Positions 1-31,655 of a stretch of DNA of 64,000 nt are shown piece after piece. The translations under genes were made by a program, and so were the position numbers. The notes beneath the pieces were generated by a model. It was not told where the DNA came from and did not search any database. It worked only from the letters and a program-made list of their open reading frames with translations. Positions within the stretch are counted from its first letter, which is position 1; the number at the start of each line of letters is the position of its first letter. The DNA comes from Bacillota bacterium (GTDB lineage Bacteria > Bacillota > Clostridia > Christensenellales > SZUA-584), in the NCBI GenBank assembly GCA_023391105.1, contig JAEWBO010000023.1:19640-83639 (forward strand), in the 5' to 3' direction.

Positions 1-31
1 GCCGTACATCTTAGCCGGTTATCTGATATCA

Positions 32-265
32 GTGAATATTGTGGGCTTTATCGTCTGCGCGGCAGACAAGCGCGCAGCCATCAAGCACCGGAGCCGTGTC
101 AGTGAGCGCACGCTGTTTGCGCTCGCGCTGCTCGGCGGGGCGCTGGGCGTATGGCTCGCTATGCTGATTTTTCATCATAAAACGAGAAAGCTGCGCTTCA
201 TGCTTTTCATGCCGCTTGTCGCGCTGGCATACGCGATACTGGTAATCATTTTGCTGGGCCAATAG
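32..265 (+). CDS. DUF1294-like small membrane protein
   Basis: 77-aa ORF. It has the basic segment DKRAAIKHRSRVSE followed by two hydrophobic helices, a layout I associate with DUF1294. Confidence 0.55.
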   Translation: MNIVGFIVCAADKRAAIKHRSRVSERTLFALALLGGALGVWLAMLIFHHKTRKLRFMLFMPLVALAYAILVIILLGQ

Positions 266-356
266 GCGCGTAAGGCAGTATATTTGCCTTGTTTTGCGCC
301 CATTTTATTGCTATAATGTATAATCGTCAAAAAGCGTTTAAAAGGAGTAACCGAAA

Positions 357-2150
357 TTGAAACAGCTGACCAGTAAAGAGCTTCGACAGATGTATCTGGA
401 TTTTTTTGCGTCGAAGGGCCACAAGATCATCCCTTCCGCGTCTCTCATACCCGAAAACGACCCCACCGTGCTGTTCACCACGGCCGGCATGCACCCGCTG
501 GTGCCATACTTGCTGGGCGCAAGGCATCCCGAGGGCACGCGTTTAACGGATGTGCAAAAATGCGTGCGCACGGGCGATATCGACGCCGTTGGCGATGCGT
601 CACACTGCACATTCTTCGAAATGCTGGGCAACTGGTCGCTTGGGGACTATTTCAAAAAAGAAGCGATTGAATACAGCTTTGAGTTTTTAACATCTGAAGA
701 ATGGCTTGGCCTTGATAAGGACAAGCTGTACTTCACATGCTTCGCGGGCGACGAGGACGCGCCCAAGGACACCGAATCTGCCCAAATATGGATGAGCCTT
801 GGCGTGGAGGAAAGCCACATCTTTTTCCTCGATAAGAAGCACAACTGGTGGGGTCCCGCTGGGCAGACAGGCCCCTGCGGCCCGGACACCGAAATGTTCA
901 TCGACACCGGTATTCCTGCTTGCTCAAAGGATTGCAGCCCGGCCTGCTCCTGCGGCAAATACCTTGAAATCTGGAATGACGTATTCATGCAATACAACAA
1001 AACGGCTGACGGCAATTTTGAGCCGCTTGCTCAGAAAAACGTGGACACCGGCATGGGGCTGGATCGCACCATTGCCACTTTGCAGGGCAAAAAGTCCGTT
1101 TATGACACCGACGCGTTCAGCGGCATACTCGCCAAAATCGCGGAACTTTCGGGCAAGGGGTACGAGGACGATCCCGATACGACGCGCGCTTTTCGTATCA
1201 TCGCAGATCATATGCGCTGCGCCACGTTTATACTGGGCGATGAAAAGGGTGTCACCCCCTCCAATGTGGATCAAGGCTATGTGCTGCGCCGCCTTATTCG
1301 CCGCGCTGTGCGTTATGCACTGCGGCTGGGCATCGAGCGCGTGTCGCTGCAATATGTCGCGCAGGCCGTGATCGACCAGTATAAGGACGCTTATCCCGAA
1401 CTGGCGCGCCACGCAGACCGCATCATCACCGAGATCAATCTCGAGGAGGAGCGTTTCTCGCGCACCATCACGCAGGGTCTCAAAGAGTTTGAAAAGCTCG
1501 AAGCGCGCCTTGACGGCAAGATTATCGCAGGGACAGACGCGTTCCGTTTATACGATACGTTCGGCTTCCCGCTTGAGTTCACGCTGGAGCTTGCGCATGA
1601 GCACGGGCTTGAGGTGGATGAAAAGGGCTTTGAGGAAGCGTTCCGCAAGCATCAGGAGGTATCCGGCGCGGGCGCGGAGCAACGCTTCAAGGGCGGCCTT
1701 GCCGACACGGGCGAAGCCACCGCACGGCTGCACACCGCCACGCATCTCATGCATGCGGCACTGCGTCAGGTGCTGGGCACGGAAGTCGAGCAGCGCGGCA
1801 GCAACATCACCGCAGACCGTCTTCGTTTCGACTTCGCATTCTCGCGCAAGGTGGAAAAGCCGGAGCTTGATGAGGTGGAGCGGCTCGTCAACGAAGCCAT
1901 CGATAAGAATATGCCTGTGATCTGCGAGGAAATGGGCGTTGAAGAAGCCAAAGGGCAAGGCGCCATCGGTATATTCGATTCCAAATATGACAGCATCGTC
2001 AAGGTATATTCCGCTGGCGATTTCTCCAAGGAAATCTGCGGCGGGCCGCATGCGGGCAACACGGGCGAGCTTGGTCGTTTCAAGATTCAAAAGGAGCAGT
2101 CCAGCTCGGCGGGTGTGCGCCGTATCAAGGCTGTGCTGATTAGCGAATAA
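357..2150 (+). CDS. alaS: alanine--tRNA ligase, short form lacking the C-terminal C-Ala/DHHA1 region
   Basis: TTG start 9 nt after the AAAGGAG RBS (341-347). The N-terminus LRQMYLDFFASKGHKIIPSASLIP..DPTVLFTTAGM is the class II AlaRS signature. Editing-domain motifs HTATHLMHAAL and CGGPH are present. Length is 597 aa against ~870 aa for canonical bacterial AlaRS. Confidence 0.9.
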   Translation: MKQLTSKELRQMYLDFFASKGHKIIPSASLIPENDPTVLFTTAGMHPLVPYLLGARHPEGTRLTDVQKCVRTGDIDAVGDASHCTFFEMLGNWSLGDYFKKEAIEYSFEFLTSEEWLGLDKDKLYFTCFAGDEDAPKDTESAQIWMSLGVEESHIFFLDKKHNWWGPAGQTGPCGPDTEMFIDTGIPACSKDCSPACSCGKYLEIWNDVFMQYNKTADGNFEPLAQKNVDTGMGLDRTIATLQGKKSVYDTDAFSGILAKIAELSGKGYEDDPDTTRAFRIIADHMRCATFILGDEKGVTPSNVDQGYVLRRLIRRAVRYALRLGIERVSLQYVAQAVIDQYKDAYPELARHADRIITEINLEEERFSRTITQGLKEFEKLEARLDGKIIAGTDAFRLYDTFGFPLEFTLELAHEHGLEVDEKGFEEAFRKHQEVSGAGAEQRFKGGLADTGEATARLHTATHLMHAALRQVLGTEVEQRGSNITADRLRFDFAFSRKVEKPELDEVERLVNEAIDKNMPVICEEMGVEEAKGQGAIGIFDSKYDSIVKVYSAGDFSKEICGGPHAGNTGELGRFKIQKEQSSSAGVRRIKAVLISE

Positions 2151-2165
2151 CAACAAGCTTTCTAA

Positions 2166-2188
2166 GCGGGCAATCAGCCCGCTTTTTT
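2166..2188 (+). terminator. rho-independent terminator of alaS
   Basis: Hairpin GCGGGC-aatca-GCCCGC followed by TTTTTT, 16 nt after the alaS stop. Confidence 0.8.
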
Positions 2189-2412
2189 ATTTGAACATTG
2201 ACCAATCCTTAAGTCAGCTAATGCTGCCACCTCCTTTAAAAAAGGAGGTGGCACGCGCTGGAGGATTGCACACGGTTTTTTTTACAATTCTGTGACCAGA
2301 TGTGACGCATTCTTTGTTTTCCTTTACATTTATTCGAATCATATCCCACTAACGGAACTTCCTCCTATTGTGCGCCGTCTGTAAGGCATAAACCAAACAG
2401 GAGGCATATTCC

Positions 2413-4074
2413 ATGAAAAGAGTGACACATATAAGTGCATTATTGCTGGCATTGATAATGGTGGCGGGGCTCATTTCCGGCTGCGGTGCAGCGCCTTTGA
2501 AAACAGACACTTCCGCGGTATACCCCGCAGAAGAACCCGGAGCGGCTTATTCGAAGGAAACCGCCGCGGGCTATCCTTCGGAGGAAGCCGAAGCTGACGG
2601 CTGGAACGGCGGATATTATGAAACTCCTTATGAGCCTGCCCCGAATGATGACTTTGGAGCCGAGGAGTACGGCAGCTTTGAGGAAAACAAATACTTCTCC
2701 CCTCTCGATCAGCCCTTAAGCACATTCTCGATCGACGTGGATACCGCGTCTTACAGCCAGATCCGCCGCTATTTGAACGAAGGCTCACTGCCTCCCACAG
2801 ACGCGGTGCGCATCGAAGAATGCATCAACTACTTTTCGTATAACTATGTGGCGCCCAGCGGCCCCGAGCCTGTGAACGTCGGCGTCACCATCAGCGACTG
2901 TCCGTGGAATGACGGGCGCTATCTGGCTCGCATCACGCTCAAAGCCGCCGAGCTGAATTTAAGCGAAGCGCCCAGCACCAATCTTGTGTTTTTGCTGGAT
3001 GTCTCCGGCTCGATGGATGACCCCGACAAGCTGCCGCTTGTGAAATCCGCCATGAGCATGCTTGCCGGAAATCTGAGCGACAAAGACCGTGTGTCCATCG
3101 TCGTTTATGCGGGTGCATCAGGCGTCGTGCTGGACGGCTGCTCCGGTTCAGATAATGCCGTTATCGACGCTGCGCTGGAGCGGCTTTCCGCCGGCGGCTC
3201 CACGGCTGGTGGAGAGGGCATTGCGCTTGCGTATGCCATAGCCGAAAAGAACTTCATTCAGGGCGGCAACAACCGTGTGATACTCTGTACCGACGGCGAT
3301 TTCAATGTCGGTCCCTCGTCCACCAATGAGCTTGAGTCTCTCATCGAAAACAAGCGTTCAAGCGGCATCTATCTGAGCGTGCTGGGCTTCGGCACAGGCA
3401 ACACCAAGGATAACAAGATGGAAACGCTCGCCGATAAGGGAAATGGCAGCTACGCCTATATCGATTCGCTGATGGAAGCCAAGAAGGTGCTGGTTAATGA
3501 GATCAGTTCCACATTGTTCACTGTGGCCAAGGATGTCAAGGTGCAGGTAGAGTTCAATCCCGATGCGATAAAAGAGTACCGCTTGATCGGCTATGACAAC
3601 CGCGTGATGGCGGCAGAGGACTTCAACAACGACAAAAAGGACGCGGGCGAAATGGGTGCGGGGCACTGTGTGACAGCGTTCTATGAGCTGATACCCGTGA
3701 ATTCTAACGATTCCGGGCAAAGCGTTGACGCGCTCGTGTTTCAGGACAATTCAGAGCCCTTACAAACGGCCTCAGCAAAGGCTGGCGATTGGCTGTACGT
3801 AAAGTTCCGCTACAAGCAGCCGGACAGCGACAAGAGTCAGCTGATGACCACAATGGCGGGAATTAAGAATTATACGGCAAAGCCCGATAATGACTTCGTT
3901 TTCGCCTCAGCTGTGGCGGAGTTCGCTCTGGCGCTTAAGAATTCGGATTATCAAGGCAGCGCCAACCTGCGGGATGTGATCGAGCGCGCCCAGGCCTCGC
4001 GCGGCACAGATGAGGACGGTTACCGCGCGCAGTTCATCCAGATGGCCGAGCTTGCCTATACGTTCTTTCGCTAA
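2413..4074 (+). CDS. vWA-domain lipoprotein (YfbK-like, vWA plus C-terminal DUF3520-type region)
   Basis: Lipobox LISGCG. The MIDAS motif is LVFLLDVSGSMDD. The N-terminal FSIDVDTASYSQIRRYL block is typical of the YfbK family. Confidence 0.8.
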   Translation: MKRVTHISALLLALIMVAGLISGCGAAPLKTDTSAVYPAEEPGAAYSKETAAGYPSEEAEADGWNGGYYETPYEPAPNDDFGAEEYGSFEENKYFSPLDQPLSTFSIDVDTASYSQIRRYLNEGSLPPTDAVRIEECINYFSYNYVAPSGPEPVNVGVTISDCPWNDGRYLARITLKAAELNLSEAPSTNLVFLLDVSGSMDDPDKLPLVKSAMSMLAGNLSDKDRVSIVVYAGASGVVLDGCSGSDNAVIDAALERLSAGGSTAGGEGIALAYAIAEKNFIQGGNNRVILCTDGDFNVGPSSTNELESLIENKRSSGIYLSVLGFGTGNTKDNKMETLADKGNGSYAYIDSLMEAKKVLVNEISSTLFTVAKDVKVQVEFNPDAIKEYRLIGYDNRVMAAEDFNNDKKDAGEMGAGHCVTAFYELIPVNSNDSGQSVDALVFQDNSEPLQTASAKAGDWLYVKFRYKQPDSDKSQLMTTMAGIKNYTAKPDNDFVFASAVAEFALALKNSDYQGSANLRDVIERAQASRGTDEDGYRAQFIQMAELAYTFFR

Positions 4075-4095
4075 ACATCGACCACTATACCAAAG

Positions 4096-4127
4096 GAACC
4101 CCGCTGCGATTTATCGCAACGGGGTTC
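4096..4127. terminator. bidirectional hairpin between the convergent vWA gene and bioB
   Basis: Stem of about 14 bp, GAACCCCG-c-TGCGAT tt ATCGCA-a-CGGGGTTC. The U-tracts are weak on both strands. Confidence 0.55.
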
Positions 4128-4162
4128 TTGACTTCATCAGCCGTTAAGGTATTCGAATACAG

Positions 4163-5134
4163 TCATTCGTCTTTTAACATCACCTTATATCCAAGCTCTT
4201 GCAGCATTTGCATATCGTCTTCCAGCGAAATCCCTGCCGTTGTGAGCATATCGCCGGAGATAGCGGCGTTTGCACCGGAAAGAAAGCAGGAGCGGCCCTT
4301 ATCTGGTAACAGTCCCCGACCGCCCGCAAGGCGAATCGCCGCAGCGGGCAGTAAGAACCGAAATACAGCCACAATACGCCGCATTTCACGGCAGGATAAA
4401 TGAGGCTCATTTTCTAACGATGTACCCGGGATGGGATTTAACATGTTTACAGGCACGCTTTTGATGCCTAGTGAACGAAGCGAAAGCCCCAGCTCCACTC
4501 TGTCCTCCGGTGTTTCTCCCAATCCCATAAGGCCTCCACTGCAAACTGTCAGACCTGTGCGTTGCGCGGCCTGCAGCACAGCGATTTTATCTTCAAAGCT
4601 GTGTGTGGAGCAGATAACAGGGAAATAGCGGCGAGAGGTTTCCAGATTGTTGTGAATCCGGGTTACTCCTGCTTCGTATAGTCTGCGAAGCTGTTCTTCT
4701 TTGAGCAGCCCGAGCGACACACATACGGATATACCGGCTTGTTCTTTGATAGCCCGAACACTTTTACAAATCTGGTCGATTTCACTGTCAGTTGATGCCT
4801 TTCCGGAGGTGACAATTGAGCAGCGCAAAATACCACGTTTGTCGTTGTGGTTTACCTGTGTCAGAATTTCTTCCGTGCTCAACAAAGGGAAGGATTGAAT
4901 ATTCGTCTGATAGGATACAGACTGCGCACAGTATACGCAATTTTCGGAGCAACGCCCGCTTTTACCGTTAATAACAGCGCAGATGTCAAAAGCGACCCCG
5001 CAAAAGTGCTCCCGAATATCATTTGCAGCATGGCACAGCTCATTGAGCGGCGCATCATATAACCACAGCGCTTCCTCTTTCGTGATATTTTCTCCTGACA
5101 TTACAGCGTTCTTCAATGCGTTTAAAGTGTACAT
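4163..5134 (-). CDS. bioB: biotin synthase (radical SAM)
   Basis: NGKSGRCSENCVYCAQS carries the CxxxCxxC motif in BioB context. GGLMGLGET follows later. Length is 323 aa. Confidence 0.8.
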   Translation of the reverse strand: MYTLNALKNAVMSGENITKEEALWLYDAPLNELCHAANDIREHFCGVAFDICAVINGKSGRCSENCVYCAQSVSYQTNIQSFPLLSTEEILTQVNHNDKRGILRCSIVTSGKASTDSEIDQICKSVRAIKEQAGISVCVSLGLLKEEQLRRLYEAGVTRIHNNLETSRRYFPVICSTHSFEDKIAVLQAAQRTGLTVCSGGLMGLGETPEDRVELGLSLRSLGIKSVPVNMLNPIPGTSLENEPHLSCREMRRIVAVFRFLLPAAAIRLAGGRGLLPDKGRSCFLSGANAAISGDMLTTAGISLEDDMQMLQELGYKVMLKDE

Positions 5135-17494: not shown

Positions 17495-17571
17495 CTGGGT
17501 GTGGCGCAGCTTGGTAGCGCGCTTGAATGGGGTTCAAGAGGCCGGAAGTTCGAATCTTCTCACCCAGACCA
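17495..17571 (+). tRNA. tRNA-Pro (anticodon GGG), CCA encoded
   Basis: Hand-folded cloverleaf. The acceptor is CTGGGTG/CACCCAG with C1-G72 and A73. The D stem is GCGC/GCGC and the anticodon stem is CTTGA/TCAAG. The anticodon loop is AUGGGGU, the T arm is GGAAG-TTCGAAT-CTTCT, and a 3' CCA is encoded. Confidence 0.9.
17526..17571 (+). repeat. attL (3' part of the intact tRNA-Pro)
   Basis: AATGGGGTTCAAGAGGCCGGAAGTTCGAATCTTCTCACCCAGACCA matches 29325-29370 at 44 of 46 positions. Confidence 0.85.
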
Positions 17572-17639
17572 AGTAAAGTCCCATAATCAAAGGGTTGTGG
17601 GGCTTTTTCTTTATTGCCCCAAGCGTTCACAAAGCTTTT

Positions 17640-20267: not shown

Positions 20268-21563
20268 TTACTCCGCTTTTTGAGGCAGATAGTACGCCTG
20301 TACTTCATCGTCGCCGACCACAAATCTGCCTTTCATATTGGGTGGCAATCTTGTTGCTTTATCGTTTCCCAAAACAAGCTGACTTGCCGCCTCGTCCGCA
20401 AAGTACGCACACGCCCTCCATAAAAGGTTGTTTTTAACTTGGCCGTCCAGAATATCTGTTGAAGGGCGAATTATACCCATAAGGATATGTACCCCCGCAG
20501 CTCTTGAAAGGCGGGCTAATGTCCTCAAACTTTGGTCTATGCTTTCATATGCCTCCTTTTCTTCTTTGGTTTTAGGCTTCACATTTAATACCTCCGCCGC
20601 CTCGTCTATGACCAGCAGCCACGGGATAAATCGCAGCTTCCCTAATGTGTTGAATTCTTCAATATTGCTGACGCCCTCTTTTTTAAAGTGATCTAAGCGA
20701 TTACGTACCTCAATGAGTAAGCTTGTCAGAAACTTTTCAGCTTCCTTTGGCTCTGAAATGATATACGTACCAGACCCATCTTCGAGGTCTATATATTTTT
20801 GGCGCTCACGGTCTATTGCTGCGAAGTCTCCGCCTCCTTTGAAATCCAGTATTTGAACATTAAACCTTTTCTTTATCGCTTGGTATATTATGACGCGTAG
20901 TATGGCTGTCTTGCCTCCTCCTGTCGCTCCTGCCACTATGCCATGTGCAAGCGAGGCGGCGTCCCAAACGCATTTTCCTTGGTACCCCTGACCAATGACG
21001 AATTTTCTCCCGTCCATAATGAAGCTATCGTCCCACTCGATATAATTTGGCAAGTTTTCATCGATCACCAGAATATCTACTTTAGTGATGCTCTCCGGCA
21101 GGTTTATAATTTTAAGAATTCGTTTTTCGAAAAACACTTCCAAATCGGATACAATACGTTCCCATCTGTCATAAGGAATCTGGGACTTAAACCTTATTTT
21201 TTTAAGATAGCGATTAAGTATAGAAGTGTTTAAGTATTTTGGTATTTTCCCGTTATATGCCTTAAATTCTTTTCGCTCAAAAAACTTTTTAAGCTTGTGT
21301 CTTCTAATAACCTCTCCATGTCTTATAATGAGGAACAGCAACGACAACGGAATCCAAAGCCAGCCAAATAGCCACACCAAAACAGGTTCATAAGCCATAT
21401 ACGAAGACGCTATATGCGTCCCTATCCATAACACGCCGCTGCACGAAAGAAATATACCGACATTTTTCAAGGTGCTTGGTCTGCGGAACATTCCCTTGAT
21501 TGAAAAGCACAATGTTTTTACGATATAGATTACAGCAGAAAGAAGTTTCAGTAGAATAAACAT
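20268..21563 (-). CDS. FtsK/SpoIIIE-family DNA translocase (conjugative coupling/TcpA-like)
   Basis: N-terminal TM helices are followed by Walker A GATGGGKT and Walker B LLVIDEAAE. I prefer the ATG at 21563 (GAGGAAG RBS) to the GTG at 21578. Confidence 0.8.
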   Translation of the reverse strand: MFILLKLLSAVIYIVKTLCFSIKGMFRRPSTLKNVGIFLSCSGVLWIGTHIASSYMAYEPVLVWLFGWLWIPLSLLFLIIRHGEVIRRHKLKKFFERKEFKAYNGKIPKYLNTSILNRYLKKIRFKSQIPYDRWERIVSDLEVFFEKRILKIINLPESITKVDILVIDENLPNYIEWDDSFIMDGRKFVIGQGYQGKCVWDAASLAHGIVAGATGGGKTAILRVIIYQAIKKRFNVQILDFKGGGDFAAIDRERQKYIDLEDGSGTYIISEPKEAEKFLTSLLIEVRNRLDHFKKEGVSNIEEFNTLGKLRFIPWLLVIDEAAEVLNVKPKTKEEKEAYESIDQSLRTLARLSRAAGVHILMGIIRPSTDILDGQVKNNLLWRACAYFADEAASQLVLGNDKATRLPPNMKGRFVVGDDEVQAYYLPQKAE

Positions 21564-21639
21564 TTTAATCTTCCTCACTTGTTATATTTCTCGCGGCCTC
21601 CGCTCTGTTTAAGAGCGGAGGATAAGCGAGAAAGAGTTG

Positions 21640-22116: not shown

Positions 22117-22881
22117 ATGACAATAAGCGAGAAAAACAAAGCTGATATGAATCGCCTTAAATCAATAATTAAAGAATTAGGTCAAACACAGATTGAATTT
22201 GCAGAGAACATAGGACGTGACGAGAAATACATCAGTAAAATTATTTCTGGTAAAAGGCCTATGACACAGGGCGTCGCCGAACAAATAAAGAAGAAATATG
22301 GTTATGAAATTGACTATATATTTGGTAAAACCGAAATTAGTAAGGACGCAGCAACGACCATTCTCGAAGATTTTCAAGGCATTTTTTCCGAGATCAGCGT
22401 GACTACACAAGGTTATATGAACGATAAGCGGGAAGAAGTCGAAAATAAATTTTTGACGTTATCAATGGATGAGTATCTATATCAATTCTTAATGGATTTT
22501 GACCACATTGAATTTCGCAAAGAAAACCATGATATAGACAATAAAGCATACGATACTGAACTTGAACTTGCCAAAAAGGACTATCTAAATAGAAAAGGTA
22601 CAGGTGAAGTGCGGCAATACATTTTAATCCCAACCATAGAAATGCCATATATTGTGGCAACAGATAGACAGCATAAAAAAGCATGGGGCGAGGTCCAAAA
22701 AGTTTTGGATTGGGATTATCAAGTCAATTCGTCACCTGTTAATATGTTTAAATTAGCGAGGTCGCTTGATGAGCAGCCCACAGCTACACGATCAAGAGAA
22801 GAAATCGAAGAAAATCAATCACACATAAACAAAAATCAAAAGCCGCCTATTTCTTCACAAGGAGAACAACCCAATGAATAG
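22117..22881 (+). CDS. XRE-family HTH protein with an uncharacterised ~180-aa C-terminal region
   Basis: N-terminal LKSIIKELGQTQIEFAENIGRDEKYISKIISGKRPMT is an HTH_3 pattern. Its stop overlaps the next gene start by 8 nt. Confidence 0.75.
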   Translation: MTISEKNKADMNRLKSIIKELGQTQIEFAENIGRDEKYISKIISGKRPMTQGVAEQIKKKYGYEIDYIFGKTEISKDAATTILEDFQGIFSEISVTTQGYMNDKREEVENKFLTLSMDEYLYQFLMDFDHIEFRKENHDIDNKAYDTELELAKKDYLNRKGTGEVRQYILIPTIEMPYIVATDRQHKKAWGEVQKVLDWDYQVNSSPVNMFKLARSLDEQPTATRSREEIEENQSHINKNQKPPISSQGEQPNE

Positions 22882-25270
22882 AGAGTTAGTTCAAACCTAT
22901 ATCAATTCACAGCCGATAAAAGCAGTAGTTGAATTTGATATTGTAAAGGAAAAGGTTAAATACGCAGATCAAATTAAACAGCACCGTATTATAAATAAGC
23001 TAAACGGTGATGAGGAATGTGTACGTGCATACATACTTACAAAGCTTGCGAATGAATACGGATATGACTTATCACGCATAGAAATTGAAAGAGAATATAC
23101 AGCAGGTCGCCCGCACACTCAAACGAGCCGAATTGATGTTTTAGTGAGAGATAAAACTGGTAATGCCTTTTTATTTATTGAACTTAAATCCCCTGATGAT
23201 TACGCCAAAGAAGATAAAGATAAATTAATTGAAGAACAGCTTTTCAAAGTCGCGGGTAATGAAGAAAAAGAGGGCGGCAAAGTTAAGTATTTGGTTCTAT
23301 ATACGGCAAACGAACAGGGCGACACCCTAACCGATGAATGTATTGTTGTTGATAACGAAAAACACAAAAATTTTAATACTTGGGTTGAAAATGACCGTGA
23401 AAGCGTTAACACAATCCCCGCACGTTATGGCAAAGCTCAACGCACTCCGTATATTAAGGCTTCACAAAAGGATTTAAAAAAGAATTTTACTCATGATACA
23501 TTAGATCGCTTGCGTATTGATTTACATAATGTCCTTTGGGGTGGCGGCGGGACTGATGACAACGAGGTTTTTTCTTCTTTAACAAATTTAATACTTTCAA
23601 AGATTCAAGATGAAAGCGAAAAGCAAGATGGAGAAAAATACGATTTTCAATCCTTTGCGTTTGAAAAGGACGGCGATGAACAGTTTGAAACAAATGAACA
23701 GCTATTCGACAGAATAAATGCGCTTTATCGCCGTGCCTTAAAACAAAAGTTAAATATTATTGATGATAACGAACTAAAGAAATCCTATGTAATCGACACT
23801 AAAAAATTCTCGCTTGCAAAATTAAAATATACCGTCCAAAGTTTAGAGAGCATTTCATTTGTTGATGGTAAAAATAGTTTTAGCGGTAAAGATATTTTGG
23901 GCGATTTCTTCGAAGGGATTATTAGGGGCGGATTCAAACAGAGCAAAGGGCAATTTTTTACGCATATAAACATTGTCCGCTTTATGTTGTGGGCAATACA
24001 AGCCGACAAATTAGCAATAGACAGGATTAACAAAGATGTCGTTATCCCTTATATGATAGACCCCTCGACAGGAAGCGGAACATTTTTAATCGAGTATATG
24101 AAATTCATAACAAAAAATATCAAGTATCGTTTTAGGGATAAGCTCAACACTTCAAGAGATGTTGAGGACAAAATGTCTGAATGGTTTATGCCCGACCACC
24201 GTGAGAATCGTTGGGCGGGGAAATATATTTACGGCTCTGAAATCAACTTCAATTTAGGCACTGCAACAAAAGTAAATATGATTTTGCACGGCGACGGTTC
24301 AACAAATATTTTTGTTAAGGACGGCTTGTTACCTTTTAGCCATTATGTGAAAGCTGCTGAACCTAATGCGTTAAAGGCTTTTGAAAAGGACAGCCTTTAT
24401 CTAGATAAGAATGTAAATGGAGCTTTTGACTTAATACTAACCAATCCGCCATTCAGTGTAGAACTTGATAATGATACCAAAAAAAGCGTAACAAAAGATT
24501 TTATGTTCGGTGATAAAAAGAATTCTGAAAATCTATTTATTGAGCGTTGGTATCAACTTTTACGTGAAAATGGGCGGTTAGCTGCTGTCTTACCCGAAAG
24601 TGTTTTTGACACAACCGAAAACAAATATATTCGCCTTTTCTTATACAAGTATTTTAAAATCAAAGCGGTTGTATCTCTGCCACAGATTGCTTTTCAACCT
24701 TTCACGCCTACAAAGACGAGCATATTATTTGCCCAAAAGAAGACAAAAACTGAAATTGATAAATGGAATAAAGCGTGGGCGGAAGCAAGCAATGAATATT
24801 CAAAGCTGAAAACGCGAATTGAAAATTTAATTGCTGTATATGCAGAAAATAAGACCAGAAATAAATATCCCTCTATCAAGGACCTGAGTGAAACCGCAGA
24901 ATTAGAGTTGTTACATAAAATACTGAAAAATCATATTACAGAGCAAGATAACGCCTTAACTCCTGCACAGATTATTGAAAAGTATTTTGATGAACTACAA
25001 TATTTATGTAAACTCGATAAAGATACAAAAGATATTTTTGGGTTCGTGAATATTTGGTGGGTTTTTGGCGAGGTTGCAAAAACGCTTAATTATGATGTGT
25101 TTATGGCCGAAGCAGATAATATAGGCTATAAACGCACAACTCGCGGTGAACGACCAATGCCCAATGATTTATTTAGAACGATACAAGGCGAAATAGCCGT
25201 TGATGACGGTATTAAAGAAACTGTTTTAGATTATATGCGTGAAATTTCGTGGGATAAGGAGGAAATGTAG
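22874..25270 (+). CDS. fused PD-(D/E)xK (HsdR_N-type) nuclease-like domain plus gamma-class N6-adenine DNA methyltransferase
   Basis: The N-terminal ECVRAYILTKL..RIDVLVRDKTGNAFLFIELK gives D88/E103/K105. The SAM motif is DPSTGSGTFL and the catalytic motif is LTNPPFSV. Length is 798 aa. Confidence 0.75.
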   Translation: MNRELVQTYINSQPIKAVVEFDIVKEKVKYADQIKQHRIINKLNGDEECVRAYILTKLANEYGYDLSRIEIEREYTAGRPHTQTSRIDVLVRDKTGNAFLFIELKSPDDYAKEDKDKLIEEQLFKVAGNEEKEGGKVKYLVLYTANEQGDTLTDECIVVDNEKHKNFNTWVENDRESVNTIPARYGKAQRTPYIKASQKDLKKNFTHDTLDRLRIDLHNVLWGGGGTDDNEVFSSLTNLILSKIQDESEKQDGEKYDFQSFAFEKDGDEQFETNEQLFDRINALYRRALKQKLNIIDDNELKKSYVIDTKKFSLAKLKYTVQSLESISFVDGKNSFSGKDILGDFFEGIIRGGFKQSKGQFFTHINIVRFMLWAIQADKLAIDRINKDVVIPYMIDPSTGSGTFLIEYMKFITKNIKYRFRDKLNTSRDVEDKMSEWFMPDHRENRWAGKYIYGSEINFNLGTATKVNMILHGDGSTNIFVKDGLLPFSHYVKAAEPNALKAFEKDSLYLDKNVNGAFDLILTNPPFSVELDNDTKKSVTKDFMFGDKKNSENLFIERWYQLLRENGRLAAVLPESVFDTTENKYIRLFLYKYFKIKAVVSLPQIAFQPFTPTKTSILFAQKKTKTEIDKWNKAWAEASNEYSKLKTRIENLIAVYAENKTRNKYPSIKDLSETAELELLHKILKNHITEQDNALTPAQIIEKYFDELQYLCKLDKDTKDIFGFVNIWWVFGEVAKTLNYDVFMAEADNIGYKRTTRGERPMPNDLFRTIQGEIAVDDGIKETVLDYMREISWDKEEM

Positions 25271-26679
25271 TGCCTCTTAAAGCTTTCAATTCAAACATAA
25301 TTTATTTCTCTAAAGAAAGATTGCTTAGATGTAATTACAAAACTCTCTCTTTATCCAAAGAATTAGAGACTATAATCAACCACAAATCGAAACACGAAAG
25401 AATAAAAGACTACTTTGATATTTTAAGCGGATTTGCATTTAAAAGCGAGGATTATGTCTTAGAGGGGGTATCCTTAGTCAGAATTGGAGATTTAAATGAA
25501 GAATTTAATATAGAGGATATGGCTAAATTGCCCGAAGAATTCTTAGATCAATATTCCCAGTATGTGTTAGAACAAGACGATATTTTAGTTTCCTTAACAG
25601 GTGATGGCGTCATAAAAACAGCTTTGGTGAATCAAAACGGATTGTTGCTAAATCAACGTGTTGGAGCATTGAGAGCTAAAAGAGAAGTAAATATTAGATT
25701 TATTCACTATCTGTTGTCAACTTCAATAGTAAAAAAGCAGTTTTTATGGTTATCAAATGGGAAAGCCCAATTAAATATCAGCCCGTTAGACTTTCTAAGT
25801 ATAAAAATACCAATTATTGACGTAAATAAACAGGAAAGAGCTCTTATTGAAACCAGTCCTATCGAACAAAAAATCAAAAGCTTAAAATCTAAGATTTTAC
25901 CTTCTCAAAAGGTTATTGATGAAGTATTCGCACGTGAATTTGGATTTGATTATGCCGAATTTGAACGGCTACACGGAATAAAATCATATATGATCGGCAT
26001 TGATTCTTTTTCAAACAACCCCGATTTACGGTTTAGTGCTAAATTTCACCGTGAAGCAGGGGAATATGTAATGCATGAATTATGCTGTATAACTAATAAG
26101 AAAATCAAGAATTATTTAGTCGAGCCAATATGTCTGGGTGCAAGCATATCACCAAAGGATTATGATGATAACGGCGAATATTATTATTTGTCAATGGCAA
26201 CGATTAAGAATTGGGGATTTGATAAAGAAAATGCAACCCTAACATCAAATGAATATTCTAACGAGAAAACTAATAAATACGTTAAGAACGGTGATATAAT
26301 ACTTGCTCGTTCAGGTGAGGGAACCATTGGGAAAGTCGCTTTGATTCAAGATGAGGACATTAAAGCCATTTTTGCGGACTTTACAATGCGAATACGCCTA
26401 AATAATTACAACCATAGATTTGCTTATTACTATATGAGGACTACGTATTTTCAATATCTTGTTGAAATTTTCAAAAAGGGGTTAGGAAATAACACAAATA
26501 TATTTCCGATAGTAATTCAAGAGTTTCCTATCCCCGATATATCATCCAAAGAACAGGATCGCATTGTGAAAGAAATTCAAGAAGAAATCAATAAGCAGAA
26601 CGCTATAAAATCAGAAATTTCTTCGTTGCGGGAACAAATTAACGAGATAATCGAAAGCGTATTAATGTCAAAAAAATAG
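25270..26679 (+). CDS. hsdS: restriction-modification specificity subunit (HsdS-like, two TRDs)
   Basis: GTG start overlapping the upstream stop (taGTG), behind an AAGGAGG RBS. The protein shows a duplicated architecture, with conserved helical spacers (IKSLKSKILPSQKVIDEVFAREFG and the C-terminal EEINKQNAIKSEISSLREQINEII). Confidence 0.8.
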   Translation: MPLKAFNSNIIYFSKERLLRCNYKTLSLSKELETIINHKSKHERIKDYFDILSGFAFKSEDYVLEGVSLVRIGDLNEEFNIEDMAKLPEEFLDQYSQYVLEQDDILVSLTGDGVIKTALVNQNGLLLNQRVGALRAKREVNIRFIHYLLSTSIVKKQFLWLSNGKAQLNISPLDFLSIKIPIIDVNKQERALIETSPIEQKIKSLKSKILPSQKVIDEVFAREFGFDYAEFERLHGIKSYMIGIDSFSNNPDLRFSAKFHREAGEYVMHELCCITNKKIKNYLVEPICLGASISPKDYDDNGEYYYLSMATIKNWGFDKENATLTSNEYSNEKTNKYVKNGDIILARSGEGTIGKVALIQDEDIKAIFADFTMRIRLNNYNHRFAYYYMRTTYFQYLVEIFKKGLGNNTNIFPIVIQEFPIPDISSKEQDRIVKEIQEEINKQNAIKSEISSLREQINEIIESVLMSKK

Positions 26680-26910: not shown

Positions 26911-26948
26911 AATAATAGGGAGAACATATAATTGATCTCCCTATTATT
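26911..26948. terminator. hairpin terminator downstream of the 217-aa gene
   Basis: AATAATAGGGAGA-12 nt-TCTCCCTATTATT, flanked by A/T runs, 9 nt past the minus-strand stop at 26957. Confidence 0.7.
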
Positions 26949-26956
26949 TAGTATAA

Positions 26957-27610
26957 TCAATATGTGTATCTTACATTGAATAATGGATCGTTTTGATATC
27001 TGAAATACACTATTCTTCTATTAAGGTTCGTCAACTCAACAATTTGCTCTTCAATCTTTGACCCGTCCGGTTGAAGTCCAGAAGTCAACTCTGCATTTAA
27101 TTGTGATCCGATTGGCATAATTACTGACAATTGAACTGCGCCTCCAGCTTGCACTTCTAGACCATCAAACGGTAAAACCACTTTGAATTCAAAATCGTTT
27201 GATGCTGGGATAGGGAATATCTTGTAATCATACGACAATCTAAATAGGTTATTCGTACCTGTTATAGGTTCTAAACTTTGCTTTTTCATCATTGAAAGCA
27301 TTAGAAACTTTGATGCATCTTCTAAAGTACCGTCAAAGTTTCCTGATAACGCTTGTTCTTTGATATCTTCTGTGCCTTCCAACAATTTTGTTTCTGACAT
27401 AGGGTACATTAGAAAGTTTGTTGCTTTAAATATGATCTCCGCTGCTGGGTTAGGTGTAACACCAGCAGGAACATACCAATACATTTCTTGTGGTATTGCT
27501 TCGCTGGTTTGTAGTAGTGTTTCTACATGAACTACATCGAATTGTCCTCCGTTGAATCTTGAAGTGTTATGAATTACAGCAGTTAAATCTTGCAAAACAA
27601 TATTTGGCAT
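26957..27610 (-). CDS. hypothetical soluble 217-aa protein (third gene of the TIR cluster)
   Basis: ATG at 27610 with a GAAGGT RBS. There is no TM segment or signal peptide. The sequence looks beta-rich, and I recognise no motif. Confidence 0.6.
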   Translation of the reverse strand: MPNIVLQDLTAVIHNTSRFNGGQFDVVHVETLLQTSEAIPQEMYWYVPAGVTPNPAAEIIFKATNFLMYPMSETKLLEGTEDIKEQALSGNFDGTLEDASKFLMLSMMKKQSLEPITGTNNLFRLSYDYKIFPIPASNDFEFKVVLPFDGLEVQAGGAVQLSVIMPIGSQLNAELTSGLQPDGSKIEEQIVELTNLNRRIVYFRYQNDPLFNVRYTY

Positions 27611-27718
27611 ATAATTACCTTCTTTTTTTAATATCATTATATATCTTACCTTACACCGAGTACCAAAAAGTGGACATTAACAGCGTTATATGTAAGAGTA
27701 TATAATTTTGATATAGTA

Positions 27719-28399
27719 TTAAACTTCTTTCATTATTTCATAATTATCAATACTATCCTGACGTTCATATGCTTTATCAATATAATAGTTAATATTGATA
27801 ATAAAGTTGTCCCATCTAACAGCTTTGATGTAACTGGGTTCTCCAGTCCAGATAGTATCATTATTAATACAGGTTCTTTTACTGCCATCTTTCTCATTGA
27901 ATTTATTCTTCTTAATAATAGTAAAAAGTTTGTTGGTGTAATGCATGGTGCAAGGATTAGAACAACAACTTTTACTTTCTAGATAATATGAGTAGGAATT
28001 ATTACTATCGGGTAACACAACGGCTATCATAGCATTAGTTTTACTTGTAATTGGATTTCCATTTTTATCTTTGCGGCTAGTTGCTTTAACTGAATATGAG
28101 ACTTCCCAAGGTATCCATTGATTTCTTTCTGTTTTATTTGTTTCTTTCATATTGGGCGAAATAAAGACTATTGTTAAGGTACTGTCATAGATTCTATCCC
28201 TAAGTTTTTGCCAGATTGTTTCGTCACTTAATTTGGATAAATCTTCGCCATCAGATTCTCCCTTGAAAATATGATTTGTTGAATCAAGTTTTGATTCAAA
28301 TTCATCAACATAATCGCGGACAGTACAATTTTTCCAATAGTGAATATTGTATACATTATCGTCAGCATACTTATAAGACGTAAATATTTTATGCCCCAT
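27719..28399 (-). CDS. TIR-like (DUF1863/ThsB-type) protein
   Basis: KIFTSYKYADD at the N-terminus, STLTIVFISPN, then WIPWEVSYS with Glu99 at the position of the TIR catalytic Glu. The size and layout resemble Thoeris ThsB proteins. An AGGAGG RBS lies inside the upstream gene. Confidence 0.7.
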   Translation of the reverse strand: MGHKIFTSYKYADDNVYNIHYWKNCTVRDYVDEFESKLDSTNHIFKGESDGEDLSKLSDETIWQKLRDRIYDSTLTIVFISPNMKETNKTERNQWIPWEVSYSVKATSRKDKNGNPITSKTNAMIAVVLPDSNNSYSYYLESKSCCSNPCTMHYTNKLFTIIKKNKFNEKDGSKRTCINNDTIWTGEPSYIKAVRWDNFIININYYIDKAYERQDSIDNYEIMKEV

Positions 28400-28400
28400 T

Positions 28401-28832
28401 TTATTTACCTCCTATTAAAATTGAAAGGATAATAACAATTACTATTAATAATGCAGTCGGAAAGTAAAACCAGAGTTCAGTTGGAGAAAAGAGACTTTGT
28501 AAATAACAGGTTTTTTGTGAATAATTTGATTCAGGTTTTGTAAGATCAAAATTAATGTCTTTTACATTTTCTAACGCACTTCTTTTATATAGTATCCGGT
28601 ATTTTCTTTCAATTTGAAGATAATAAGAATCTAAGCCCCAAAACATAATAGTTGGTATATAAGCAAGAAGGAAGAAAAGCAGATTAGAATTTTTTTCTGA
28701 TAAAATAAGAATTCCAGATATTAAAGTTATTGTCCAACCTTTTAGGGCAAACGAATTATGTGTCATACGATTAATAATATTTTGAATCATTTCTAGATGT
28801 CTTATTTTAGGTTCTAAATTTTCGGAATCCAT
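28401..28832 (-). CDS. small membrane protein (3 predicted TM helices), first gene of the TIR cluster
   Basis: ATG at 28832 behind a GGAGGAA RBS. The hydrophobic helices are TITLISGILIL, LLFFLLAYIPTIMFWGL and LWFYFPTALLIVIVIILSILIGG. The stop lies 1 nt from the TIR gene ATG. Confidence 0.7.
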   Translation of the reverse strand: MDSENLEPKIRHLEMIQNIINRMTHNSFALKGWTITLISGILILSEKNSNLLFFLLAYIPTIMFWGLDSYYLQIERKYRILYKRSALENVKDINFDLTKPESNYSQKTCYLQSLFSPTELWFYFPTALLIVIVIILSILIGGK

Positions 28833-28877
28833 GTTTCCTCCTTGAAGAAGTTTGAATGAAAGTAATATGTTTAGTTT

Positions 28878-28907
28878 ATTATACCACATACTTCCTAAAC
28901 TTTTCAA
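28878..28907 (-). promoter_or_regulatory. promoter of the TM-TIR operon
   Basis: On the minus strand, TTGAAA-18 nt-TATAAT with an extended TGg element, about 45 nt upstream of the ATG. Confidence 0.55.
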
Positions 28908-28972
28908 CATATTCTAACACCATATCCATTATTATGATATAATGTGAGCGATATTTTGTTGGAGGATAGAAA

Positions 28973-29174: not shown

Positions 29175-29324
29175 TTTTCTCGTTTTCCGTCCAAAATTGA
29201 AACTTCTGCTCTATAGGCTTTCTTTAATTAATTTCTCTTTATACCCCGATTTTACTTGTGCATTCAAGGCTTTTTCCACTAATAGATAAAAGCCTTTGGA
29301 TACTATTAAAAGATAGCCCCCGTC

Positions 29325-29370
29325 AATGGGGTTCAAGAGGCCGGAGGTTCGAATCCTCTCACCCAGACCA
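29325..29370 (+). repeat. attR (displaced 3' tRNA-Pro fragment)
   Basis: AATGGGGTTCAAGAGGCCGGAGGTTCGAATCCTCTCACCCAGACCA. The two differences from attL are a compensatory pair in the T stem. Confidence 0.85.
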
Positions 29371-29810
29371 CGTCGAAATGGACTACGCTTCGTTCGCTTT
29401 TCGGACGAAGCGTTTCTCTTTATCCGTCCGAAAAGCTCACACGCTCCGTCATTGCTCCTTTTCCACAAAAAGCCGCGTTCGCATCGGCTAAGCGCTTGCA
29501 AGCGCGCGCTTTGACGCCGATTTGCTCACTACCACCTTTTTTGCGGTTGCCGCCTTCGGCGGCGATTGAACCCAAATGTGGGATCCGTTTTCATCTCAGT
29601 CTTTTTCTTTTTCTCATGCAACCCCAAATTTGGCCACCTCTAATTAAACTACTAATGGATTTATACAACTTCTTATTTGCTTAGTATGAGAGCAGGAGAT
29701 AACATATATATCTCGAATATGTTATACTAAATCACAATAAAAAAATGGATATAACACTTGCGGTGTTTCTCCGCACATTCTAACTTCAATATAAAAGGAG
29801 ATAAATTTAT

Positions 29811-31295
29811 ATGATCAATATCCCTGAAGTCAAAATGGGCATTGTGGCCGTCAGCCGTGACTGCTTCCCGATTGATCTGTCCATCGAGAGACGCAAAGCT
29901 GTCATTGAGGCCTGCCAGAGAAAGAACATTTCAATTATCGAAATTGAAACGACGATTGAAAATGAGCATGATACGATGCGTGCGCTTGAAGAGCTGAAGG
30001 AAAAGGGTGTCAACGCGCTTGTTGTGTTTCTTGGTAACTTCGGCCCAGAAGGCCCCGAAACTATGCTGGCGCAGGAGTTTAATGGGCCGTCGATGTTTTG
30101 TGCGGCTGCCGAAGAAAATATCGAGGTGCTCTCGAGCCGCCGCGGAGACGCATACTGCGGCATGCTTAATGCCAGCTATAATTTGAAATTACGCAAGGTC
30201 AACGCATACATACCCGAAAAACCAGTCGGGACGGCTGAGCAAATCGCAGACTTGATTCAAGAGTTCCTGCCGATCTCACGCGCCATTATTGGCGTCAAGG
30301 GTCTCAAAATCATAACATTCGGTCCGCGCCCGTTTGATTTTCTCGCATGCAACGCGCCGATTGCGCCGCTGTTCAAAATCGGTGTCAATGTGCAGGAAAA
30401 TTCCGAGCTTGATCTGTTTGCGGCCTTTAACAAGCTCAAGGATGATCCGCGTATTCCCGCTGTCGTTGCGGATATGGAAAAGGAGCTCAAAGAGGGCAAC
30501 TGCATGCCTGGCATACTGCCCAAACTGGCACAGTTTGAGATCACGCTTCTTGACTGGATAGCCGAAAACAGGGGCGCAGCCAAATATGTCGCGCTGGCCA
30601 ATAAGTGCTGGCCCGCTTTCCAAACGCAGTTCGGGTTCGTGCCGTGCTATGTAAATTCACGCCTGACAGCCAGAGGCATTCCTGTCGCTTGCGAAGTGGA
30701 TATCTACGGCGCACTCAGCGAGTATATCGGCACATGCGTCACAGGTGCACCTGTGACCCTGCTTGATATCAACAACACGGTGCCTGCCGATATGTATGAA
30801 CAGTCAATTAAAGGCAAGCTTGGCTATGGCGACAATGAGGTGTTCATGGGTTTCCATTGTGGTAACACCCCAATCTGCCGCTTGAAGAAAGGTACAATGA
30901 AATATCAGTTGATTATGCACAGAGGACTTGAGCCGGACAAAGAGCCCGATATCACGCGCGGCACGCTCGAAGGCGATATCGCCCCCGATAAGATCACGTT
31001 TTTCCGTCTGCAGGGCAACATCGAATCGCAACTTCAAAGCTATATTGCGGACGGCGAAGTCCTTCCTGTGGACACGCAGTCGTTTGGTGGCATCGGTGTG
31101 TTCGGCATTCCCGAAATGGAACGCTTTTATCGCCACGTATTGATTGAGGACGGCTATCCGCATCACGGTGCTGTGGCATTCGGCAACGTGGGACGACAAA
31201 TATTTGAAGTGATGAAGTCACTCGGCGTTGGGAAGATATCGTTCAACAGACCCAAGGGAAATGACTATCCCACAGAGAATCCATTTATGAAGTAA
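29811..31295 (+). CDS. L-fucose/L-arabinose isomerase-family protein
   Basis: 494 aa with an AAAGGAG RBS. The N-terminal MGIVAVSRDCFP...LVVFLGNFGPE and overall length fit the COG2407-type sugar isomerases. Confidence 0.6.
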   Translation: MINIPEVKMGIVAVSRDCFPIDLSIERRKAVIEACQRKNISIIEIETTIENEHDTMRALEELKEKGVNALVVFLGNFGPEGPETMLAQEFNGPSMFCAAAEENIEVLSSRRGDAYCGMLNASYNLKLRKVNAYIPEKPVGTAEQIADLIQEFLPISRAIIGVKGLKIITFGPRPFDFLACNAPIAPLFKIGVNVQENSELDLFAAFNKLKDDPRIPAVVADMEKELKEGNCMPGILPKLAQFEITLLDWIAENRGAAKYVALANKCWPAFQTQFGFVPCYVNSRLTARGIPVACEVDIYGALSEYIGTCVTGAPVTLLDINNTVPADMYEQSIKGKLGYGDNEVFMGFHCGNTPICRLKKGTMKYQLIMHRGLEPDKEPDITRGTLEGDIAPDKITFFRLQGNIESQLQSYIADGEVLPVDTQSFGGIGVFGIPEMERFYRHVLIEDGYPHHGAVAFGNVGRQIFEVMKSLGVGKISFNRPKGNDYPTENPFMK

Positions 31296-31479
31296 AGCAG
31301 AAACAAAAAGCGCTAAATGGGAGAATCCTGTATGCGGGTGTAAAAGCCGCCGCATGACGACATTCTTGCTGACATTCTCCTTGTGTATTGCATACTTTAC
31401 TGGGTGGGATGTGAAGGGCGAGTTCATCTTGACCCTTGACATCCCATTCAATCATTTCTATGTTTGCTGCCTTCGGCGG

Positions 31480-31581
31480 CGCATTCATCCTCATATCAAT
31501 ATCATCATGGGCATATCTCATTGTGGATTTAATATCTCCGTGTCTGAGCCATGACTGAATCTGCAGCCTGCTAAGATGTGT
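31480..31581 (-). pseudogene. relic of a tyrosine recombinase C-terminus
   Basis: Translates to THLSRLQIQSWLRHGDIKSTMRYAHDDIDMRMNA, which fits the LLGH..I.TT..YAH end of integrases. No upstream catalytic domain remains. Confidence 0.5.
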
Positions 31582-31655
31582 TTGTATTTCATATTGATTT
31601 TGTATGAATATGTTGCTAACATGAGGATGAATCAACATCGAAAGGCTTAAACGAT

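Follow-up and report, generated by a model that had tools for sequence, protein, structure and literature searches.

Two adjacent minus-strand genes in a 64,000-nt stretch of Bacillota bacterium DNA (GenBank assembly GCA_023391105.1, contig JAEWBO010000023.1, positions 19,640–83,639 of the forward strand; hereafter the window) most probably constitute a two-gene type V Thoeris anti-phage system, ThsF plus ThsB, carried as cargo of a tRNA-Pro island. Based on sequence comparison, we place the probability of this assignment at about 0.85. The locus adds one more instance of a system already known and does not represent a new kind. An earlier note, made from the DNA sequence, had described three co-directional minus-strand genes as an undescribed TIR-based defense operon. 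All three open reading frames (ORFs) were recovered and are referred to here as genes 1 to 3:

28401..28832, minus strand: gene 1, thsF-like effector, a small 143-aa protein with three membrane helices
27719..28399, minus strand: gene 2, thsB, a predicted TIR-domain signal synthase of 226 aa, translationally coupled to gene 1
26957..27610, minus strand: gene 3, 217 aa, predicted to be an independent cargo gene and not a Thoeris component

Type V Thoeris was defined by Yirmiya et al (2025; bioRxiv 10.64898/2025.12.03.692087) as ThsB together with ThsF, a three-helix membrane effector that carries the annotation DUF2270/PF10028. In the same study, defense was validated in Bacillus subtilis for the systems from B. 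thuringiensis DAR 81934 and Bacillus sp. 1NLA3E, which work as two genes; the signal in the DAR 81934 system was 3'cADPR, and added 3'cADPR alone was toxic to cells carrying a validated type V system.

Gene 2 proved to be a ThsB-type TIR protein, as the earlier note had read it, scoring 31.1 bits against Pfam ThsB_TIR (cut-off 21.2) and matching the PADLOC ThsB1 model PDLC00428 over its full length (6.3e-79). The motifs KIFTSYKYADD, STLTIVFISPN and WIPWEVSYS noticed there are all present, with the Glu at residue 99, and this Glu99 aligns with an invariant Glu column common to ThsB of B. cereus MSX-D12 and a validated type V ThsB. Gene 2 shares 71% identity over 214 aa with a TIR of the published Table S1 (IMG 2656684796) that is labelled “DUF2270 - Type V”, and this label is the first of the three grounds on which we assign genes 1 and 2 to type V. 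The two genes are tightly joined, as had been claimed: the TAA stop codon of gene 1 is separated by a single base from the ATG of gene 2, whose AGGAGG ribosome-binding site lies within gene 1.

The 143-aa product of gene 1 matches four PADLOC PDC-M50A models, the best at 1.7e-44 over residues 8–136, and found no informative family in Pfam or NCBIfam; unnamed PHROGs families match both genes 1 and 2. The three hydrophobic helices proposed for it are borne out. Its AlphaFold2 (AF2) model, with a predicted local distance difference test score (pLDDT) of 88.8, contains three long helices (residues 3–45, 58–87 and 117–141), while a hydropathy scan gave two strong segments (49–69 and 117–143) and a third that is only moderate (~31–47). 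No PDB entry matched the model in a fold search at E ≤ 0.001. An alignment of 27 family members (alignment A1) revealed invariant residues at R22, K31-G32-W33, F64, L67-D68, E75, R79 and Y123. The family is large, comprising at least 3,409 clusters at 90% identity and at least 576 loci among species-representative genomes, and is distributed over Bacillota, Bacteroidota, Pseudomonadota, Cyanobacteriota, candidate phyla and archaea. When alignment A1 was used as a profile to look for Pfam-labelled DUF2270 proteins, the top 120 matches consisted of unlabelled close relatives only.

The other two grounds for the assignment lie in genomic context: proteins of the gene 1 family adjoin relatives of both validated type V ThsBs. 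With the DAR 81934 and 1NLA3E loci represented by relatives from species-representative genomes, 13 of 18 loci with DAR 81934 ThsB relatives proved to have a gene 1-family protein nearby (E 1e-22 to 5e-56), and in most of them it comes immediately after the TIR gene. Relatives of the 1NLA3E ThsB at 71% identity (loci L113 and L114) are followed after 2 nt by a 135-aa gene 1-family protein (E ~1e-50). On Bacillus and Priestia plasmids, the partners of B. thuringiensis ThsB relatives are SIR2 or Macro effectors, and no ThsF-family ORF was found beside these relatives.

The same pairing was evident when the gene 1 family was taken as the starting point. Synteny was counted over the best 80 of the at least 576 gene 1-family loci and over 14 independent gene 3 loci. 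In the former, almost every gene 1-family gene is tightly coupled to a neighbor in the same orientation; among 86 coupled neighbors, 49 match ThsB_TIR and 36 match TIR_2. By a narrow ThsB profile, a co-directional TIR gene lies within 150 nt in 46 of the 80 gene 1-family loci and in 0 of the 14 gene 3 loci, and Pfam identified TIR_2-type partners in at least five further gene 1-family loci. The TIR partners belong to several unrelated subfamilies of differing size, TIR-WD40 fusions included, and some loci are flanked by TIR genes on both sides. In L010, L019, L021, L041 and others, the order is a TIR protein of ~163–195 aa, ThsF, and a ~400-aa protein with a C-terminal TIR, so that two different ThsB genes stand around one effector. 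As judged from these gene neighborhoods, pairing with varied TIRs is the Thoeris pattern of one effector served by one or more exchangeable ThsB sensors.

Two Bacteroidota loci (L002:5452-7602 and L003:1327-2586) present another arrangement, in which the tightly coupled neighbor is a radical-SAM/class-V aminotransferase fusion and no TIR gene was found within 3 kb; this neighbor may be there by chance or may be a non-TIR partner. At a further locus, a 298-aa protein of Citricoccus sp. (L115:1933-2829, NZ_JBHTCV010000011.1) adjoins TIR genes and combines a HIT-hydrolase-like N-terminal part, in which the histidine-triad motif HVHFH can be read, with a C-terminal part matching the gene 1/ThsF family profile (E 7e-22). 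“HIT hydrolase” is the effector class of type XI Thoeris (bioRxiv 10.64898/2025.12.03.692087). The ThsF-like module may be a portable signal-sensing or membrane module common to several Thoeris types.

Several observations weigh against the type V assignment. The connection between gene 1 and the validated ThsF proteins runs through relatives of their ThsB partners. Gene 1 itself has no match to PF10028/DUF2270 at E ≤ 1 in Pfam; sub-threshold matches occur in 10 of the 27 relatives in alignment A1, the best with E 0.012 and ~13 bits against a cut-off of 25, and in one of ten effectors adjoining type V-like TIRs (E 0.068). Since these matches stay below threshold, the link of gene 1 to the Pfam family is remote at the level of sequence profiles. 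In addition, gene 2 falls into TIR cluster 2742576382, other than the clusters of the validated type V systems (2734579397 and 2612357774), and it shows 34% identity to one validated type V ThsB and no meaningful alignment to the other. The only tested member of cluster 2742576382, which belongs to a P. macerans operon of type IX, gave no defense, and adding 3'cADPR drew no response from one of the validated type V systems (bioRxiv 10.64898/2025.12.03.692087).

Compared with the published type V systems, the locus has the same two-gene plan of a TIR protein and a small three-helix membrane effector, and it likewise resides in a defense or mobile-island context. It differs from them in the TIR cluster of gene 2, in a gene 1 that remains below the Pfam PF10028 threshold, and in gene order: the effector gene precedes the TIR gene here, whereas several relatives have the TIR gene first. 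The nearest entry in PADLOC-DB v2 is PDC-M50, to whose component A gene 1 corresponds; PDC-M50 is a bioinformatic candidate only, PADLOC calls gene 2 ThsB1 and not a PDC-M50 component, and the other PDC-M50 models matched neither gene 2 nor gene 3 at E ≤ 1. A literature search for PDC-M50 returned no mention of it. The proposal that the system was undescribed is not supported, as gene 1 matches the PADLOC candidate PDC-M50A and the pair is assigned to type V Thoeris.

The other Thoeris types share part of this design. Type I (ThsB with the SIR2-SLOG protein ThsA) uses the same ThsB family of TIR sensor, and PADLOC files gene 2 with the ThsB1 models. It differs in that no SIR2 or SLOG protein occurs among the scanned island genes and in that the effector here would, by analogy, act on the membrane and not by NAD+ depletion. 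Neither SIR2, SLOG nor Macro partners were found by Pfam and PADLOC in genes 1–3 or in the island genes scanned, in agreement with the earlier note, and Pfam detected no Macro domain in genes 1, 2 and 3. Types II (ThsB with a transmembrane-Macro protein) and VII (ThsB with SLATT) follow the same logic, with a TIR-made, ADP-ribose (ADPR)-derived signal activating a membrane-disrupting effector. Gene 1 differs from both, having neither a Macro domain nor a SLATT match and being much smaller at 143 aa, and any signal site in it would need to be built from the helical protomers themselves.

The locus encodes a TIR protein with the catalytic Glu, coupled to a three-helix membrane partner in a conserved pairing. 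By analogy with the published type V work, phage infection would lead ThsB to convert NAD+ into a cyclic ADP-ribose isomer, which in the reference case, the B. thuringiensis system, is 3'cADPR. The signal would then bind positively charged pockets between the protomers of an oligomeric ThsF ring at the cytoplasmic membrane face. The invariant R22, K31, D68, E75 and R79 flank the membrane helices on their presumed cytoplasmic side and would be suited to such a pocket. Binding would result in membrane disruption, with growth arrest or death before phage replication is complete. Gene 3 would be a separate passenger that merely lies downstream. The small membrane protein had already been proposed as the effector partner of the TIR, and this view matches the published type V logic.

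Alternatively, the TIR protein itself could be an NAD+-depleting effector, comparable to the TIR effectors of CBASS and Pycsar, with gene 1 as an anchoring or regulatory membrane partner and not the killer. Many bacterial TIRs are NADases, and signal synthesis is inseparable from bulk NAD+ hydrolysis by sequence alone. We nevertheless consider this explanation unlikely: the TIRs paired with the gene 1 family fall into several unrelated subfamilies, and at times two TIR genes are present; the L115 locus fuses the ThsF-like module to a HIT hydrolase effector; and 3'cADPR alone is toxic in cells with a validated type V system.

Slightly less probable still is a new TIR system of three genes, with gene 3 as sensor or accessory to the TIR protein and its membrane partner. 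All three genes are co-directional, and the gap between genes 2 and 3, which measures 108 nt as previously reported, contains no consensus terminator according to the terminator scan. The trio is also kept in six metagenomic contigs, but these are copies of this same island with 99.9–100% identical DNA, and recurrence of the trio is limited to such copies; because they represent one island, the identical gene 3 copies were rejected as independent evidence. A gene 3 relative was found in 0 of the 80 gene 1-family loci, and a TIR or ThsF gene was found near gene 3 in 0 of the 14 gene 3 loci and likewise in none of one phage and two plasmid records. Validated type V systems, moreover, function without a third gene. 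On these counts, the three-gene operon of the earlier note was not upheld, and gene 3, as far as gene neighborhoods and sequence can tell, is not part of the Thoeris system and is an independent passenger of the mobile element.

Equally improbable is the suggestion that gene 1 is a SLATT-type pore former, that is, type VII signalling with canonical cyclic ADPR (cADPR): SLATT effectors do pair with TIRs and define a separate Thoeris type, VII, and a small multi-helix membrane protein does adjoin the TIR here, but Pfam gave no SLATT family at E ≤ 1 for gene 1 or any of its 26 relatives. The closest TIR in the published table bears the label type V and not VII, and genes of the gene 1 family stand downstream of relatives of the validated type V ThsBs.

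With genes 1 and 2 read as type V Thoeris, gene 3 calls for separate description. It matched nothing in Pfam, PADLOC, NCBIfam or PHROGs. Its family comprises 66 representatives at 50% identity among 1.84 billion proteins, nearly always standalone and 215–230 aa long, and no named domains were found in its distant relatives; two long repetitive matches were discarded as low-complexity artefacts. The AF2 model of gene 3 (pLDDT 89.3, predicted template-modelling score 0.82) is a β-sandwich with a helical insert, for which the PDB holds no convincing match (template-modelling (TM) score ≤0.43). OST1, the N-terminal domains of M1 aminopeptidases and mu-homology domains were considered as fold relatives and rejected as generic β-sandwich similarity, with TM scores ≤0.43 and root-mean-square deviations of 8–10 Å.

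One relative of gene 3 is viral, in all likelihood gp48 of Clostridium phage vB_CpeS-CP51, a temperate phage. The phage gene (phiCP51_0048, L117:1870-2538) is annotated as a hypothetical protein of 131 aa, and in a tblastn comparison all 217 residues of gene 3 align to it in one piece at 37% identity; its annotated start is probably too far downstream. In the phage, the gene adjoins an integrase and an invertase. In a C. tyrobutyricum prophage, a relative lies between Kiwa (KwaA/KwaB) and HicAB; in B. toyonensis one lies near CBASS, and in D. hafniense one is divergent from a Peptidase_M78 gene. In several Bacillaceae, the relative is divergent from a fused XRE-HTH/ImmA-like protein of ~362 aa, and divergence from an XRE-HTH/ImmA-IrrE regulator, fused or separate, is frequent in L083–L090, L093 and L126/L127. 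These regulators resemble CapH and CapP: among 103 ORFs neighboring gene 3 relatives, eight match PADLOC CapP models and eight match CapH models. Such surroundings suggest damage- or induction-responsive control of the gene in other genomes; no CapH/CapP-like regulator flanks gene 3 in the window. By guilt by association, gene 3 is a plausible independent defense-island gene. More tentatively, and with considerable doubt, the family could be an undescribed single-gene phage-defense or counter-defense module occupying prophage accessory positions and defense islands (Kiwa, CBASS, Thoeris, restriction-modification), with about half of its independent loci divergent from a CapH/CapP-like damage-responsive switch composed of an XRE repressor and an ImmA/IrrE peptidase.

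The signals around the three genes and the ends of the island are as follows:

28878..28907, minus strand: promoter-like site upstream of gene 1 (TTGAAA, 18 nt, TG-TATAAT), a consensus match only
26911..26948, minus strand: 13-bp perfect hairpin, a possible terminator, 8 nt after the gene 3 stop codon and with a weak U-tract
17515..17574, plus strand: attL-like direct-repeat copy, the 3' part of tRNA-Pro (17495-17571)
29314..29373, plus strand: attR-like degenerate copy of the tRNA-Pro 3' end, an island boundary just past gene 1

The start codon of gene 1 was taken as the ATG with AGGAGG ahead of it. An alternative 169-aa ORF starting at 28910 is also present; the shorter form is favored because relatives in alignment A1 begin there and because the best promoter-like site lies downstream of the alternative ATG, between the two ATGs. 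This site (28907-28878) is the best minus-strand promoter match of the region in the consensus scan, with 11 of 12 positions and an extended -10, and promoter-like sites over the region numbered 18 against 15.2 expected from shuffled sequences, that is, no excess. The strong terminator proposed after gene 3 is supported as far as its stem is concerned (-18.6 kcal/mol, z -4.15); its U-tract is poor, and the consensus scan did not call it.

The placement of the genes at the cargo end of a tRNA-Pro island was confirmed by the tRNA, the flanking repeat and the GC step. The island is 11.8 kb long and of low GC content (0.30–0.37 compared to ~0.50 in the flanks), is bounded by a 60-nt direct repeat (17515-17574 and 29314-29373, 88% identity), and bears genes 1–3 at its far end. 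Its other cargo includes an integrase, an FtsK-like protein, and a methyltransferase/IIG-like gene with a specificity subunit, the last two corresponding to the adjoining restriction-modification (R-M) system already recognized in the earlier note. This R-M-like module (window 22117-26679, plus strand) consists of three genes: the first encodes 254 aa with a faint HTH_3 match and overlaps the next by 8 nt; the second, of 798 aa, carries HSDR_N_2, N6_Mtase and Eco57I matches and is hit about equally by type I, II and IIG methyltransferase models; and the third encodes a type I-like specificity subunit of 469 aa. The module showed no separate restriction subunit, and its two larger proteins also match the MADS components mad2 and mad5. 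The 436-aa FtsK/SpoIIIE-like protein (window 20268-21578, minus strand) has partial PADLOC matches to SspH (3e-20) and mad8 (9e-12) and may be a DNA-transfer ATPase of the island and not a defense gene.

A metagenomic contig (L121, positions 1-4240) carries the same island at 99.93% identity and diverges from the window exactly at the attR-like repeat (window 29370 onward). Past this repeat lies a different element, which encodes a 395-aa integrase of its own, DprA and an HTH_17 excisionase-like protein. Comparison of the contig with the window suggests that islands have accreted in tandem at the tRNA-Pro-derived site. In the window, a 117-aa ORF (31285-31638, minus strand) carries the C-terminal signature of tyrosine recombinases (...STMRYAHDD...), and an 82-nt portion of the ORF aligns at 94% with the integrase region of L121; the ORF is probably what is left of an integrase ~2 kb beyond attR, the trace of an earlier element.

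The functional model of the earlier note, in which a TIR-derived signal drives a membrane effector, was essentially right and agrees with the published type V work. The locus provides a further natural type V Thoeris system with a TIR from a clade other than those validated with ThsF, and it could help to identify the signal produced by this clade and the way in which a membrane protein of 143 aa senses a nucleotide signal. For defense screening, gene 3 would be a sensible choice in its own right and not as a member of this operon. For the ThsF family as a whole, most members are missed by current Pfam and NCBIfam profiles, so that ordinary annotation leaves such systems as a lone ThsB without a partner.

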